From positions 1,607,429 to 1,671,428 of the forward strand of contig OZ220748.1 in the NCBI GenBank assembly GCA_965117035.1: a stretch of 64,000 nt of DNA, written 5' to 3'. The position numbers and the translations under genes were made by a program. The notes below the pieces were generated by a model that worked only from the letters and a program-made list of their open reading frames with translations, ran no database searches and was not told where the DNA came from. Positions 8,181 to 17,741 of this stretch are shown here, piece by piece (positions within the stretch are counted from its first letter, which is position 1; every line of letters starts with the position of its first letter). Source of the DNA: Dehalococcoidia bacterium. Lineage in GTDB: Bacteria > Chloroflexota > Dehalococcoidia > Lucifugimonadales > CAZENU01.

Positions 8181-8254
8181 GGTGGCGGCCGGCCTTCCGA
8201 AGGCACTGAGCTTGTTTGAAGGCGGTGAGCATCGCCGTTGCTAGGCAAACGTGG

Positions 8255-9232
8255 TCAGGGGGCTATCCCTAAACTTGGCCCTTCGCCGATCACTGCCAAA
8301 ATGCGGGCTTTCAGTTTCTCGCGCAATGCCGCAGGCTTGGCCCAGACTATGTGGCTGTAGTGGTTCGTATCGAAATGCAGTCCTTCGAGGGCATCGTCCC
8401 GACACGTAAAGATAACTGGCAACTCTAGACCGTGGGCAAAACCGGCTTCGTAGTAGACGCCGCCCCGTGCGCCGTCCGCCCCATGGGTAAAGTCGGCCAC
8501 GAGGAACCTCGAGCGACGAATCTCGGCTATGAGCTCGTCGTCTATCTTGTTGATGTGTTCTTTCCGGTCTATCCGCAATGGAGCGTAGCCAGCCTCCTCA
8601 ATGGCCGGTCTGATGCCGTCCTCGTAGGTCTCGGTCATGCTCTCATCAAACCACATGGCAACGAACGCTTGGGAAGAATCAACGTTCGTTTGTTGGTCCG
8701 CGATCTGACTGTATCCGTCTACGGTGATCTGTCCCTTGAACACATACGGCGCGAGGATTCCCGCTTTGAGCCAACCCTTGTCGGTCAAGTAGCTCAGGAA
8801 ATAGTGAACCTCAGGCCAATCGATCGATTCAGACCATGCAGATGCAAGACGACAGTCTTTCTGAGACACCGTCACTACGTCTCCAACAGTGGCAGCAGAC
8901 AGAGCGATGTATCGAAGCAGGCTCTCAGCTCGCTCGTGCACCCGGAGCGGACGTTTGGCTCTCGTGTAGTCGATGACGGACTCAGTAATCTCTGGCAGGG
9001 GAACTCCCTTCGCGCGCTGATCCACAAGCCAAGTCGTCAACCGCGCCTTCTCGGGGTTGGTCATCCTCTGAATGTTTGACGTTACTACCACGCGGTCGAC
9101 AACATATCCGCCTCCCGCACGACTAGAGTCATCGACCCTGAACGTATTGGTTTGCGGAATATAGATTCCGTCTGCCTGATCTCCCCAGATTGGACAAGAG
9201 GACAGTCCCTCTGTCATATCGCTGCGCTCCAC
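8255..9232 (-). CDS. two-domain protein: N-terminal possible winged-helix region plus C-terminal nucleoside 2-deoxyribosyltransferase-like (TIR/SLOG-related) domain
   Basis: 325 aa. C-terminus reads FVAMWFDESM...FLVADFTHGADGARGGVYYEAGFAHGLELPVIF, resembling the NDT-fold pattern with a conserved Glu (about E262). Local GC is lower. Confidence 0.55.
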   Translation of the reverse strand: MERSDMTEGLSSCPIWGDQADGIYIPQTNTFRVDDSSRAGGGYVVDRVVVTSNIQRMTNPEKARLTTWLVDQRAKGVPLPEITESVIDYTRAKRPLRVHERAESLLRYIALSAATVGDVVTVSQKDCRLASAWSESIDWPEVHYFLSYLTDKGWLKAGILAPYVFKGQITVDGYSQIADQQTNVDSSQAFVAMWFDESMTETYEDGIRPAIEEAGYAPLRIDRKEHINKIDDELIAEIRRSRFLVADFTHGADGARGGVYYEAGFAHGLELPVIFTCRDDALEGLHFDTNHYSHIVWAKPAALREKLKARILAVIGEGPSLGIAP

Positions 9233-9260
9233 GTTCTCTTGATCCGCAATGTCGGCAGAT

Positions 9261-9971
9261 TTACCAGGGGAGATCTTCCGGTGGGGAGCCCATCACAAGT
9301 TCATCGTCGACGATCATGTAATCGTCGCCTGTCAATCGGTGCAACTGTTCGACGATGCATCTTCCGAAGCCGAAGGAGCGATACACTTGACCATTGCCAT
9401 TGAACGCGTCAACAAGATCTCTAACTTGGCGGGAAGATAGCTGGCGAATATCGGGCAAGTACGTTGCCAGATTGTTTGAGGTAGCGTAGTTCGGAGATTG
9501 AGTAATCGCGGAAATGAAGGCATCCGTAGCCAGCGGCTGCAACCCATCATAATCGAGAAGACACTCAAAGATGGCAACCGCAATCTCCTCAGCATTCGTA
9601 TGGCCCCGAAGCGCTTGGTACTTGCCCATAAGGCCGTAGGGGTCCTTGCCCATGCGGACGGGAACAACGGGAACGCCACGTCCGACGGCAACGCCTACCT
9701 CTTGGTCGGTCCAATCGCTGTCACTGAACCCATCGGTCAACAACGCCACGAGGACGTCCATGCTGAAGAGAGCGCGTTCCATCTCATCTTGCCACTCGCT
9801 CATGGGCCTGATGTCCTCATGTGCCACAAAGGATGCGATGCCGTAGCGATATAGACGATCCTTAAGTCGTGTTGCGAGGTCTTTGTCCTCGTCCTTGTGG
9901 CTGATGAAGACCTGCACCTCGCCTTCGCCCCATAGCTGTTTCTCTTCGTCAGATCGTCTCCCGTTTACCAC
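9261..9971 (-). CDS. TIR-domain protein with uncharacterised C-terminal domain
   Basis: 236 aa. VQVFISHKDEDKD...GIASFVAHEDI...DVLVALLT..FSDSDWTDQEVGVAVG matches bacterial TIR_2 hallmarks, including the conserved Glu (about E91). Lies 28 bp upstream of the next gene. Confidence 0.75.
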   Translation of the reverse strand: MVNGRRSDEEKQLWGEGEVQVFISHKDEDKDLATRLKDRLYRYGIASFVAHEDIRPMSEWQDEMERALFSMDVLVALLTDGFSDSDWTDQEVGVAVGRGVPVVPVRMGKDPYGLMGKYQALRGHTNAEEIAVAIFECLLDYDGLQPLATDAFISAITQSPNYATSNNLATYLPDIRQLSSRQVRDLVDAFNGNGQVYRSFGFGRCIVEQLHRLTGDDYMIVDDELVMGSPPEDLPW

Positions 9972-10077
9972 TGTTGAGCCTTACCTCCTTCCACATCAAT
10001 CCCGGCAGTGCCGTGGCAAATGGTATCCCCCATGAGATGCGGGCCTACATTGTCACGCCAATAGCTGTTTCCTGCAC

Positions 10078-11289
10078 CTATTCGAACTGCCGACGAACTT
10101 GGCCTGAGCCTACGAACTGGGACAGCAGCCGGTAGTTGCCGGACTCGTAGCGCACTCTGCCGGCGACGACCGCCGGGTGGATCCCCAGGTCGAATGCGAG
10201 CGCCATGACGGCCATGCCCGACGGGTCCGACGCGGCCTCGCTCGCGTCCCAGGCCGCCTTGGGGATGAGCGCCTCCTCCGCTAGTGCGTCCGCCTCGGAC
10301 TCCTTGGAGCCACCGTTGGGCTCCTCTCTGCTCCGCAGAGTGTGATCGTGGACGAATGAGGCGTCTTCGCCGTTGTCGAGGTGCAGCCCGATATGGGCCA
10401 GCTCGTGTAGCAGGCAGTACCAGAAGTTGTCGATCCGGTCGTACCGGAGGGTCAGGCCGATCACGGGCGGGCCGTTGCTCTCGCGAAGCGCGGCGCCGTC
10501 CAGATGCGTTCTCGGCAGATGGCGCACAATCTGCACCGGTATGCCGAGATCGGCGAGGAGACCGACTGCCTGCCTTGGCCCGTCTTCGAAGCGGCTGAGC
10601 TGCGCGATGTTCCGGAGCAGCCCGGGGGTGACCGTTCCCGACCGGTACGAGGCAGGCGGCGGGTGCGCGTTGGCCCTGGCCAGCACCTGCCAGCACCATG
10701 CGCCCAAGGCATACTCGTCCGTCTTGGCGTTGACGCGTCGATGGTCGTTCCTGCGAAACGTCGACGCGGGCGCAACGCTGTGACCGCCGGCGCGGCGCAT
10801 AAGGTCGCGCATAATCTCCTCGGCTCGGTCCTTCAGATCCGGGGCGTCCGGAATCCATCCAAGCTTGGCCATCGCCCGAACGGGAAAGCGCGTCCATTCG
10901 ACGCCGGCCAGCGTGTCGTCCAGGATCACCTCTGGCTCCCTGAGCAGCGCTTCAGCCGGAATCCCGAGGTGCCGATGAAGCGCGCGGGCCATCGACATGG
11001 TGATAGGCCGCTTACCGGAGAGCACCTCCGACACCTTGGCGTAGCTACCGATGTGTGGTACCAAATCCCGCCGCTTCAGGCCCGCCTGGTCCATGCGGAA
11101 CTCGATTGCCGCTACGGGGTCGGGAGGGGCAATCGGATGGTACCGGTCCTCGTAGTGCTCGACGAGGTCGGCAAGAATATCCCGCTCGTCACCCTCCGGC
11201 GTACCGTCCTCGGCGTGGAATATCTCCCCGAGCCTATCCAACGCCGCCTCGTAGTCGCCCTCGCTGCGGATCGGACTGATCGTCACCAT
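10078..11289 (-). CDS. HigA-like HTH antitoxin domain fused to ImmA/IrrE metallopeptidase domain
   Basis: 403 aa. N-terminal XRE/HigA-type HTH (KVSEVLSGKRPITMSMARALHRHLGI); C-terminal HEXXH (LLHELAHIGLH). Confidence 0.75.
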   Translation of the reverse strand: MVTISPIRSEGDYEAALDRLGEIFHAEDGTPEGDERDILADLVEHYEDRYHPIAPPDPVAAIEFRMDQAGLKRRDLVPHIGSYAKVSEVLSGKRPITMSMARALHRHLGIPAEALLREPEVILDDTLAGVEWTRFPVRAMAKLGWIPDAPDLKDRAEEIMRDLMRRAGGHSVAPASTFRRNDHRRVNAKTDEYALGAWCWQVLARANAHPPPASYRSGTVTPGLLRNIAQLSRFEDGPRQAVGLLADLGIPVQIVRHLPRTHLDGAALRESNGPPVIGLTLRYDRIDNFWYCLLHELAHIGLHLDNGEDASFVHDHTLRSREEPNGGSKESEADALAEEALIPKAAWDASEAASDPSGMAVMALAFDLGIHPAVVAGRVRYESGNYRLLSQFVGSGQVRRQFE

Positions 11290-11292
11290 TGT

Positions 11293-11613
11293 CTACACCT
11301 CCTCGGCATCGACCCTGTCGTACTCCGCGTGCGTGCCGATAAAGCGTATGTAAACGCGCCGGCCCGCGTAGTTCACGTCGACCACCAACCGGTAGGCACT
11401 ACCCTTGATCCTGAATACGACGCGATTGTTGGGCAGGATGCTGGCGCGGGAAAATCGATGCCGTACCTGGTCCGGCGACGCCCAGTCGGCCCGCCGGGTT
11501 TCGAGAAACCAGGCCCGCAACGGCTGCTCGGAATCAGGATGGCGCTCCCAGAACTCTCGAAGGGTCTTTCTGGAGAAGATCCGCAAGGTCCCACATGCCA
11601 ATCCAATCTTCAC
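11293..11613 (-). CDS. higB: HigB-family type II toxin
   Basis: RIFSRKTLREFWERHPDSEQPLRAWF...RFIGTHAEYD matches the HigB_toxin family. Likely true start is TTG at 11586. Confidence 0.75.
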   Translation of the reverse strand: MKIGLACGTLRIFSRKTLREFWERHPDSEQPLRAWFLETRRADWASPDQVRHRFSRASILPNNRVVFRIKGSAYRLVVDVNYAGRRVYIRFIGTHAEYDRVDAEEV

Positions 11614-11718
11614 ATATCTTACTACGCTCCCAAACTAGATGCAATTACCACAGTCCCATAGCTCAACCACACGCGTCGCCTTGACAGTTGCAAACCGGCG
11701 GGCGTAATCTCGCGGCAG

Positions 11719-11955
11719 TTGCCGACCTGGGGGACTGGAGGGCGCATGGGCATGTCGGAGCAGCAGCCGGTACCGGCGCACGGCGCGTCGGTGGAGGATG
11801 TCGCGGCGTCGCTGTGGCGCAGGGCGACCGAGCTGTGGGGGCCGGAGCGGGCCAGCGAGCTCGGCCACGTGCTCGACAACATCGCGGAGGACGTCTGGGT
11901 CGTCTCCCGCGTCCCGCTGTCCGACGCCGACGAGCCGGCCTTCTACCCCCGCTGA
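11719..11955 (+). CDS. small hypothetical protein (possibly DUF4089-like)
   Basis: 78-aa ORF with good codon bias ending DEPAFYPR. Weak call. Confidence 0.25.
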   Translation: MPTWGTGGRMGMSEQQPVPAHGASVEDVAASLWRRATELWGPERASELGHVLDNIAEDVWVVSRVPLSDADEPAFYPR

Positions 11956-16436: not shown

Positions 16437-17069
16437 CTAGCCCGTCTCCAGGGCGCTCTCGAGGAACCCCCGCAGGACGTCCTCCCGGAGCGCCCCGACC
16501 CACGTCCTCAGCACCCTGCCGTCGGCGCCGAGAATCACCGTCGTCGGCAGCGCGAAGACGCCGTCGTTCCCGACCCGGCCGAACTCGGCGGCCAGCCGGC
16601 CGGTCTCGTCGACGCCGAGCGGGTAGCTCACGTCGATCCTGTCGGCGAACGCCTTGGCGGCGAGCTCGACGTCCTGGGTGTCGATGCCCAGGAAGGTCAC
16701 GCCGCGGTCGCGGTAGTCGTTGTAGACGCGGTCGAACGCGGGCATCTCGGTGACGCAGGGCCCGCACCACGACGCCCAGAAGTTCAGGACGACGATCTGC
16801 CCGTACAGGTCGGACAGCCGCAGCGTGTCGCCGTTGAACAGCGCCAGCGGCAGCTCGCGCACCGGCACTTGCGGGAGCCGCATGACCGCCGGCGTCGGGG
16901 TCGGCGGGACAGGGGTGGGCGTGGCGGTCGGGGTCGGTGCCGGCGTCGCGGTCGCGGTCGGCTCGGGCGTCGGCGTCGGGGCCGCGGCGGCTCCACAGCC
17001 GACGATCAGCACCGCGGCCAACGCCGCGAGCGCCGTCAACGCGCAATGTCCCAGTCTACGGTCGTTCAT
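16437..17069 (-). CDS. TlpA/ResA-family thiol-disulfide oxidoreductase, lipoprotein
   Basis: Lipobox LIVGC, Pro/Thr linker, then thioredoxin motif [10 protein letters not shown]. Confidence 0.8.
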
Positions 17070-17419
17070 TGGCTGCGCGGTCCTTCCCCAACGATTGACC
17101 TCAGTTGCTCGACGAGCGGCGGGAGATCGTTCTGCACGATATCCAGAAGGACGGTCAGGTCAACATCGTCGTAGCCATGGACAAGGCGGTTGCGTGCCCC
17201 GACGATCTGAGCCCAGGCGATTTCCGGGTGACGCTGCCGTGTAGCTGGAGAAACCCTGGTTGCGGCTTCACCTACGACCTCCACCAACTTTCGTACGGCC
17301 AATTCGGTTACGCGGTCTGTCGTCAAATCGGTAGAGTCGGCGTTCCCAAGCAACTCGATGGCTTCACTGGCGTGGTTCAGCATGTCCACGAGGAATAGCG
17401 TTTCATCGCGCCTTGTCAT
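17066..17419 (-). CDS. hepT: HepT-like HEPN toxin (DUF86)
   Basis: R-x4-H motif (RNRLVHGY); overlaps the upstream nucleotidyltransferase gene. Confidence 0.8.
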   Translation of the reverse strand: MTRRDETLFLVDMLNHASEAIELLGNADSTDLTTDRVTELAVRKLVEVVGEAATRVSPATRQRHPEIAWAQIVGARNRLVHGYDDVDLTVLLDIVQNDLPPLVEQLRSIVGEGPRSQ

Positions 17420-17741
17420 ACAGCACCTGTGCCGAATCGAGTATCTCGGCTTTGAGCAGCCAGTTGCGGCTTTCTTCGACCCCCTTGAAGGTGCTCAGGT
17501 CCACCCGCCGACCGAGTATCGTCGACAGCTCTTCGTGCATCGTGAAGAACGCCAGGCCCACGCGTGCGTCGGGCTCGAACTCGACGAGTACGTCCACGTC
17601 GCTCTCGGGCGTGAAGTCGTCACGCAGGACCGAGCCGTACAGGGCAAGACGCCGGATGCGGTTGCGCTGACAGTACTCCGCGATCCTGTCCATCGGGATG
17701 TCGATTCTGGGATTCAATAGTGTACTCCGGCGAGCATCCAC
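17403..17741 (-). CDS. mntA: MntA-like nucleotidyltransferase antitoxin
   Basis: LALYGSVLRDDFTPESDVDVLVEF minimal nucleotidyltransferase signature. Confidence 0.8.
   Translation of the reverse strand: MDARRSTLLNPRIDIPMDRIAEYCQRNRIRRLALYGSVLRDDFTPESDVDVLVEFEPDARVGLAFFTMHEELSTILGRRVDLSTFKGVEESRNWLLKAEILDSAQVLYDKAR

Follow-up and report, generated by a model that had tools for sequence, protein, structure and literature searches.

Two adjacent genes of low GC content in the genome of a Dehalococcoidia bacterium raise the question of whether they work together as a dedicated defence system or are two independent defence genes lying side by side. They belong to a 64-kb stretch of contig OZ220748.1, which is referred to as the window, with positions counted from its first letter. 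Gene 1 (9261–9971, 236 aa) encodes a TIR-domain protein. Gene 2 (8255–9232, 325 aa as the longest open reading frame (ORF)) encodes a protein whose C-terminal domain resembles TIR folds and those of nucleoside 2-deoxyribosyltransferase (NDT). Both ORFs exist as predicted, co-directional on the minus strand. The original prediction, made from the letters of the DNA alone, took them for a sensor/effector pair outside any named system. Our analysis points elsewhere: gene 1 and gene 2 are probably two separate single-gene defence cargo genes, not a dedicated pair, and they occupy a variable slot behind a vertically retained pair of upstream genes, components A and B (the A/B pair).

Gene 1 and gene 2 are seldom neighbours in other genomes

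Species-representative genomes of many phyla contain at least 576 confirmed loci of the gene 2 family and at least 432 of the gene 1 family, and the best 80 of each family were inspected. A partner was sought within 8 kb of the gene 2 loci by tblastn and with a TIR-domain hidden Markov model (HMM), and none of the 80 loci contains a gene 1-type TIR in this range. On the side of gene 1, gene 2 adjoins it in 2 of the 80 loci, in opposite orders (gene 2 followed by gene 1 in L088, gene 1 followed by gene 2 in L090). With these counts and these orders, the dedicated pair fails on the conservation of neighbours. In L088 and L090 both genes are located in the cargo interval between hsdS and hsdR of type I restriction-modification (R-M) operons, and the A/B pair occupies the same interval in L110. 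An insertion hotspot common to the two families is thus the best explanation for their rare adjacency.

To catch other TIR families, we annotated the same-strand ORFs on either side of the 80 gene 2 loci with Pfam. Downstream, 3 ThsB_TIR and 2 TIR_2 matches occur among 144 ORFs; upstream, no TIR family is found among the top 25 Pfam families. Among the closest metagenomic relatives, no partner accompanies P0122 (L269), which is 60% identical to gene 1, P0123 (L271), or P0003 (L272), which is 62% identical to gene 2. The window copies share 60–65% identity with solitary homologues, compared with 45–46% for the paired ones. On plasmids of Klebsiella, B. mycoides and Bradyrhizobium, the homologues stand alone. 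Two metagenome-assembled genomes carry both families at unlinked sites (L001 and L083 of isolate 8e13df92; L017 and L085 of chromosome OZ244028.1), and on OZ244028.1 a distance of about 2.2 Mb separates the two relatives.

We notice another arrangement around P0002 (L270), the closest relative of gene 2 with 65% identity. It lies in a type I R-M cargo interval (L270:2686–5223) that holds the gene 2 homologue, two ThsB_TIR genes, one of them a weak match, and a gene for an 8xMP membrane protein. This interval could represent a separate TIR-plus-membrane-effector module, or it could hint at cooperation between gene 2 and a TIR protein.

Both families recur in restriction-modification and defence loci

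To survey the genomic context, genes in 75 gene 1 loci and 72 gene 2 loci were called crudely, clustered and annotated with Pfam. The gene 1 family resides in type I R-M operons in 28 of the 75, and 18 of these have hsdM/S upstream and hsdR downstream. The gene 2 family stands beside R-M-type genes in 28 of the 72, including 11 with type I R-M. HEPN/MNT pairs, AbiEii-like ATPases, UvrD-like helicases, and type ISP and Eco57I-like enzymes also occur as neighbours. Each family is also found alone in R-M loci, defence islands and plasmids, conjugative ones included, with a patchy distribution over the phyla. The defence context that had been proposed for the two genes holds. The window's own copies lie outside any R-M operon. 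That type I R-M, BREX and DISARM systems harbour embedded defence genes is an established pattern (Payne et al. 2024, doi 10.1101/2024.01.29.577857), and TgvAB, which is embedded in type I R-M systems, targets phages with modified DNA (PMC11411939).

Two further features of the gene 2 loci were observed. At L001:6247–7962 and L270:963–2636, both on the plus strand, and in about 7 of the 80 loci, HsdS is N-terminally fused to a Pol-beta/MNT nucleotidyltransferase domain, and a HEPN gene (NTase_sub_bind) is situated just upstream of such fusions, so the type I R-M operon appears to have absorbed a HEPN/MNT toxin-antitoxin module. Some relatives of gene 2 lie beside ABC-transporter genes (for example L272); 9 downstream ORFs match BPD_transp_1 and 5 upstream ORFs encode solute-binding proteins. 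These neighbours suggest a second recurrent chromosomal insertion site, outside R-M operons.

Gene 1 carries a TIR domain with an invariant glutamate

In gene 1, the Pfam family TIR_2 (PF13676) matches residues 21–124 with an E-value of 1.5e-18 and 67.9 bits against a cutoff of 28. The AlphaFold2 (AF2) model has a predicted local distance difference test score (pLDDT) of 81.5 and a predicted template modelling score (pTM) of 0.81. Searching with this model, Foldseek returned the TIR domains of SARM1, B. cereus, BtpA, MAL and AbTir (E 2e-4 to 3e-3, probability 1.0, target-normalised TM-score (TMt) 0.55–0.68). The TIR domain spans approximately residues 18–124 (nt 9600–9920), followed by a helical C-domain at residues 125–236 (nt 9264–9599).

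The bacterial TIR hallmarks read from the sequence, including a glutamate near residue 91, are present, and E91 is unchanged across 23 homologues. It is aligned with the glutamate that RPP1 and Cat1 carry in their SSWCLDEL / DWCWDEL motif. The glutamate of the SSWCLDEL-type motif is the catalytic residue of enzymatic TIRs. The C-terminal part, which had been described as an unassigned domain of about 100 aa, is 111 aa long and shows no Pfam match even at permissive thresholds and no relative in the PDB; it accompanies the TIR domain in 77 of the 80 loci. Gene 1 is a bona fide TIR domain with an invariant Glu91 and a family-specific helical C-domain.

The public gene call for gene 1 (P0121) starts from an internal Met and is 180 aa long, losing the first TIR strand. 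We regard this form as truncated, since the homologues align from residue 1 of the 236-aa form and a ribosome-binding site, GGAAGGAGG, precedes the GTG.

Gene 2 joins a winged-helix-like half to a TIR/NDT-type domain

The start of gene 2 is most probably the ATG at 9217, giving 320 aa, because GGAG is found 9 nt upstream, the N-termini of homologues agree, and the public call P0001 has 320 aa. The gap between gene 1 and gene 2 then becomes 43 nt, and the 28 bp noted earlier holds for the longest ORF. In the longest ORF, the N-half covers nt 8681–9232 and the C-domain approximately residues 185–320 (nt 8258–8680).

In the AF2 model (pLDDT 85), the N-half consists of a small beta domain with an invariant C13-x-I-W-G motif, and then of helix-helix-wing modules resembling winged helices. 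The winged helix suspected in this half is thus probable. No Pfam family matches the N-half even at E-values up to 5.

The C-domain contains the motifs FVAMWFDE, FLVADFT and GGVYYEAGFAHGLELPVIF, which are near-invariant family-wide, and the glutamate expected near residue 262 is the invariant E262, located within GGVYYEAGF. The Pfam family Nuc_deoxyrib_tr (PF05014) matches gene 2 with E 4.4e-4 and 20.8 bits, under the cutoff of 28.8, and a few gene 2 homologues carry a precomputed PF05014 match. The PADLOC profile PDLC00733 ('Effector TIR') matches residues 201–308 with E 1.9e-9. By tblastn, the C-domain shares 34–35% identity over about 95 residues with the effectors at L165 and L203. In the whole-chain Foldseek search, the top ranks were spurious multi-domain matches (flavodiiron proteins, GPCR fusions), and domain-sized matches alone were used. 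These comprise BcmB, DNPH1 and NDT together with the TIR domains of SIGIRR, RUN1 and AbTir, with probability of about 1.0 and TMt of 0.52–0.64 (0.55–0.64 for NDT, DNPH1 and BcmB) at weak E-values of 6e-3 to 5e-2. The best TM-scores belong to the CMP N-glycosidase BcmB (0.64) and to DNPH1 (0.61), with TIR domains nearly equal.

Searching the PDB by sequence, the C-domain profile returned nothing even at E-values up to 10, and the whole-protein profile gave chance-level matches only, so the fold is assigned from Foldseek together with the PADLOC and Pfam profiles. Of the NDT fold proposed for gene 2, a TIR/NDT-type domain stands by Foldseek and PDLC00733. A fold of the NDT/DNPH1 type in particular is possible, with the Pfam match below threshold and TIR domains scoring equally well. 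Aligning the C-domain with the gene 1 family by hhalign gave a weak match (probability 29%, E 6e-4) in which YYE262AGFAHG is superposed on DQE91VGVAVG. This superposition suggests that gene 1 and gene 2 each carry a TIR-superfamily domain with a glutamate at the same position.

The relationship to PDLC00733 also bears on the sensor/effector reading. The full-length PDLC00733 protein at L203, an effector of the cyclic-oligonucleotide-based antiphage signalling system (CBASS), has an N-terminal TPALS domain, PF18178 (Cap17-like_N), and TPALS is a predicted cyclic-oligonucleotide sensor (Rousset et al. 2023). It follows that gene 2 shares homology with the effector moiety of this protein, which speaks against a dedicated sensor/effector pair. 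We considered the CBASS-effector (Cap17) similarity of gene 2 as a similarity to the sensor domain and rejected it, since the TPALS part is the sensor (Rousset 2023).

Clustered at 50% identity, the proteins that match the C-domain form 8943 clusters for E up to 1e-3 and 4805 for E up to 1e-10. The majority are approximately 320–350 aa long and carry the domain at the C-terminus. The gene 2 family ranges over Chloroflexota, Acidobacteriota, Pseudomonadota, Verrucomicrobiota, Bacillota plasmids and more. A B. mycoides homologue is labelled nucleoside 2-deoxyribosyltransferase by NCBI. In the temperate Streptococcus phages Javan306, phiARI0923 and IPP17, hypothetical proteins are about 30% identical to the C-domain (residues 179–311), so this domain is also phage-borne.

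A retained A/B pair precedes exchangeable defence cargo

Directly upstream of gene 1 lies a gene pair of the PD-lambda-2 A/B type (10078–11613) that the original prediction overlooked and that is the conserved anchor of the locus. Component A (11293–11613, minus strand), the first gene of the cluster, is a HigB-like RelE-fold toxin gene, with matches to PADLOC PD-Lambda-2_A (2.2e-36) and Pfam HigB_toxin (1.3e-27). Component B (10078–11289, minus strand) is a fusion of a helix-turn-helix (HTH) domain of the HigA/Xre type and a C-terminal zinc peptidase of the M78/ImmA-IrrE type. It matches PADLOC PD-Lambda-2_B over its full length (8e-131), with a weak capP match (9.7e-4) and a Pfam Peptidase_M78 match below threshold (1.9e-3), and its translation contains a HELAH motif.

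Component A is upstream of B in all 80 of the closest B loci, at a gap of 5–20 bp. The gene following B varies, and in many of the B loci a co-directional gene starts 25–60 bp after B. None of these 80 loci contains gene 1 or gene 2; the A/B pair occurs together with gene 2 at L043 and with gene 1 at L110. The cargo behind B includes a CBASS cyclase with a 2TM effector, a cyclase/TRIP13/TPALS-TIR set, a PifA-like KAP NTPase, PDC-S19 (DUF3644 HEPN), PDC-S34 and DUF4238. At L169:5600–8700, L165 and L203:5600–10800, L168, L214 and L224, pairs of this type are co-directional with the cargo that they immediately precede, namely complete CBASS operons (of type I, having a 2TM effector, and of type III, having TRIP13 and a TPALS-TIR effector), PDC-S19, PDC-S34 and a PifA-like gene. 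Such loci suggest that pairs of the A/B type are a general front-end module for immune operons.

Three sister Dehalococcoidia genomes (L241–L243) preserve the same site, with flanking proteins 88–94% identical and the layout found in the window, running from a sulfatase through A, B and cargo to a methyltransferase. All three have B orthologues (84% identity) or remnants there. In L243 (4830–8000), the A/B pair is intact and the cargo is PDC-S19/DUF3644 (3.9e-139). A B remnant is accompanied by a PIN gene and an NB-ARC protein in L241 (2750–8000), and by a Phd/PIN pair in L242 (6300–8000). These intervals correspond to 8181–11800 of the window, and gene 1 and gene 2 are absent from them. By this comparison, the A/B pair stays in place as the anchor and the genes behind it are exchanged, gene 1 and gene 2 being those of the window. 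The slot between the sulfatase and the methyltransferase is a defence/toxin-antitoxin hotspot with swapped cargo.

PD-lambda-2 depends on component C for defence, and its toxic component B is neutralised by A (Vassallo et al. 2022, PMC9519451). CapH-CapP fusions, one of them with a vapC-like gene, have been described next to CBASS and DISARM (Lau et al. 2022, doi 10.1101/2022.04.27.489752), which makes a regulatory role for the A/B pair plausible by analogy. On this analogy, the transcription of any cargo that follows may be switched by the pair in a toxin-guarded, CapH-CapP-like manner.

Base composition and layout of the cluster

No other 1717-bp stretch of the 64-kb window has a GC content as low as that of gene 1 and gene 2 (0.550; mean 0.678, sd 0.032), in line with the low GC noticed at first sight. 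GC content is 0.53–0.56 across 8250–10000 and 0.65–0.74 on both sides, and only four overlapping segments reach 0.56 or less, all of them at gene 1/gene 2. The GC content at third codon positions (GC3) is 0.62–0.63 for gene 1 and gene 2, 0.78–0.82 for the A/B pair (0.78 for A) and 0.93–0.97 for the flanking housekeeping genes. Judged from this gradient, gene 1 and gene 2 would be a recent acquisition.

The spacer between B and gene 1 (9972–10077, minus strand) is 106 nt long and carries the strong ribosome-binding site GGAAGGAGG before the GTG at 9971. No terminator was detected between B, gene 1 and gene 2, in a promoter and terminator scan that gave nothing beyond chance level. All four genes are probably co-transcribed, the A/B operon providing for the expression of gene 1 and gene 2. 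The edges of the cluster were placed by synteny with the sister genomes; its immediate flanks within the window are metabolic genes, the 64-kb window holds no tRNA, and no convincing direct or inverted repeats flank the cluster. At 17066–17741 on the minus strand, genes for a HepT-like RNase (Pfam 2.5e-22) and for an MNT nucleotidyltransferase (1.7e-14) make up a HEPN/MNT toxin-antitoxin pair, which falls on the second low-GC dip (0.59) of this part of the window.

Proposed mechanism and alternative readings

For both genes we infer an enzymatic activity, a substrate, a trigger and a control by the A/B pair along the following lines. Gene 1 and gene 2 would be members of large, unnamed, candidate single-gene defence families, and each is probably a self-contained sensor-effector whose Glu-dependent TIR-superfamily domain is predicted to cleave NAD+ or, for gene 2, possibly a nucleotide. 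On infection, the non-catalytic module of gene 1 or gene 2 would sense a phage cue. The Glu-dependent domain would then be activated, most likely through oligomerisation as in other TIR enzymes, and would cleave the N-glycosidic bond of NAD+ or, in the case of gene 2, possibly that of a nucleotide, as DNPH1, MilB and BcmB do. The cleavage may lead to growth arrest or abortive infection. Single-protein defence by TIR-like NADases with a catalytic glutamate and an auxiliary domain has been reported (doi 10.64898/2026.05.01.722283).

Several points weigh against two independent cargo genes under A/B control. Three independent juxtapositions (the window, L088 and L090) exceed a naive random expectation, and the closest gene 2 relative, at L270, adjoins ThsB_TIR genes of another TIR family. 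Having near-identical GC and GC3, lying 28–43 nt apart and showing no terminator between them, gene 1 and gene 2 may have arrived together and are probably co-expressed. The C-domain of gene 2 remains under the Pfam NDT threshold and has no sequence-level PDB match, and a defence function of both families is deduced by guilt by association. The inspected loci are the best 80 per family out of at least 576 and 432, and their genes were called by a crude heuristic. As to the A/B pair, canonical capH/capP genes are divergent from their operon, whereas A/B is co-directional with its cargo.

A first alternative is a Thoeris-like two-gene module, in which the TIR of gene 1 would make an NAD-derived signal on infection and gene 2 would sense it through its NDT/SLOG-like domain and execute the response. 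Co-direction, equal GC3, the lack of a terminator between the genes, the adjacency of the same two families in L088 and L090, and the TIR-class genes beside gene 2 at L270 and a few more loci are all compatible with such a module, as is the general diversity of ThsB families. We nevertheless consider it very unlikely, because linkage is rare with a varying order, no TIR family is among the top upstream neighbours of gene 2, and gene 2 matches no ThsA model in PADLOC or NCBIfam. The C-domain of gene 2 retains the catalytic-position glutamate and has its homologue in the effector half of the CBASS effector instead of in the TPALS sensor half; its N-half has no recognisable killing domain; and the window copies are nearer to solitary homologues than to paired ones. 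A PD-lambda-2-like composite, with A and B as a fixed core and gene 1 and/or gene 2 replacing component C and needed together with A/B for defence, appears unlikely for reasons of a similar kind: neither gene matches PD-Lambda-2_C, the 80 closest B loci contain neither, most relatives of gene 1 and gene 2 lack A/B beside them, and the GC3 of A/B is clearly unlike that of gene 1/gene 2. Moreover, the B cargo includes complete self-sufficient systems such as CBASS, so the role of a regulator or neighbour fits better than that of an obligate subunit. In its favour are the very strong matches of A and B to the PD-lambda-2 models, the need for C in PD-lambda-2 beside a toxic B and a neutralising A (PMC9519451), the joint occurrences at L043 and L110, the many co-directional genes 25–60 bp after B, and the stretch between B and gene 1 without a terminator.

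The remaining alternatives concern what the proteins do. Gene 2 could be a nucleotide N-glycosidase of the DNPH1/MilB/BcmB type, not an NADase, that destroys modified or canonical (deoxy)nucleoside monophosphates needed by phages and thereby complements R-M. This is possible but less probable. In its favour, the sole Pfam match of gene 2 is the NDT family, the TM-scores of BcmB and DNPH1 are slightly above those of TIR domains, the B. mycoides homologue bears an NDT annotation, and R-M-embedded genes such as TgvAB target phages with modified DNA. Yet the Pfam match is sub-threshold, the Foldseek E-values are weak with TIR folds almost equal, the nearest PADLOC profile is labelled a TIR effector, no solved NDT or DNPH1 structure matches at the sequence level, and sequence cannot tell the substrate of gene 2. 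That the two genes serve housekeeping, as nucleoside salvage plus a TIR scaffold with low GC by chance, is extremely improbable. Salvage enzymes do occur in the Pfam NDT family and the immediate flanks are metabolic, but GC3 is strongly atypical, both genes are absent at the same site in the sister genomes, the families are patchy across phyla, and their relatives recur in R-M, toxin-antitoxin and defence loci and on conjugative plasmids.

Going beyond two independent cargo genes, several of these views can be joined. The A/B pair would be a fixed, toxin-guarded control half with a freely exchanged effector half (CBASS, PDC-S19, PifA-like, NB-ARC, and here a TIR and a winged-HTH-NDT-like protein). 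The gene 2 family would be a major family of single-protein immune systems that has so far escaped recognition (about 4800 clusters at the 50% identity level, E up to 1e-10) and whose DNPH1/TIR-type domain destroys NAD+ or phage-specific nucleotides, and in some genomes gene 2 may also cooperate with adjacent TIR genes. We hold this combination to be fairly unlikely as a whole.

If validated, the gene 2 family would represent a very large, phylogenetically broad and unnamed single-protein branch of TIR/NDT-type immune effectors, and the gene 1 family another TIR protein typically embedded in type I R-M operons. The locus itself is a clean natural case of cargo turnover, in which near-identical sister flanks and a retained HigB/HTH-peptidase pair enclose differing defence genes. 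It permits a direct test of PD-lambda-2 A/B-type pairs as general controllers of neighbouring immune genes.

Comparison with known systems

PADLOC and NCBIfam assign neither gene to a named system, in agreement with the original prediction. The PDC set of PADLOC covers neither family: the TIR part of gene 1 has a weak PDC-S66 match (1.3e-5), and gene 2 has none. The locus reveals no new signalling system; TIR-like N-glycosidases, guilt by embedding and CapH/CapP-like regulators are an established paradigm.

Thoeris likewise has a TIR gene beside a gene with a nucleotide-related Rossmann-like domain. However, the ThsB match of gene 1 is weak (2.7e-7), its ThcB4 match reaches 54.5 bits against a cutoff of 220, and, unlike in Thoeris, there is neither a ThsA-type protein nor obligate linkage. 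The effector of TPALS-'TIR' CBASS (PDLC00733) has a C-terminal effector domain homologous to the C-domain of gene 2. Gene 2 differs from it in lacking the TPALS sensor (PF18178) and a CD-NTase partner, its N-half being a different module, and no CBASS cyclase is found within the cluster.

Single-protein TIR and TIR-like NADases (Swarozyc/DUF4062) resemble gene 1 and gene 2 in that a TIR-superfamily domain with a glutamate at the catalytic position is fused to an auxiliary domain. The location in defence islands and the expected abortive infection are also common to them. In contrast, the auxiliary domains of gene 1 and gene 2 have no known homologues, and neither protein matches a named single-gene TIR system in Pfam, PADLOC or NCBIfam. 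An assignment of either gene to DUF4062/Swarozyc was considered and rejected, as Pfam gives no DUF4062 match.

For the upstream genes, components A (HigB-like) and B (HTH-peptidase) of PD-lambda-2 are matched over their full length, but there is no counterpart of its component C, a relative of a P4 phage antitoxin; the third position is taken by gene 1 and gene 2 here and by other defence cargo in related loci. CapH with CapP, and CapH-CapP fusions, which have been reported along with a toxin-like companion gene (Lau et al. 2022; Calloji et al. 2026), resemble B, with an HTH domain and an M78-type zinc peptidase beside diverse defence systems. The A/B pair differs from them in being co-directional with its cargo, in having a HigB-like partner in 80 of 80 loci and in its weak capP similarity (9.7e-4), and B of the E. 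coli PD-lambda-2 is itself toxic. Finally, as with embedded defence genes (Payne et al. 2024; PrrC; TgvAB), relatives of gene 1 and gene 2 are situated in the hsdS-hsdR interval.

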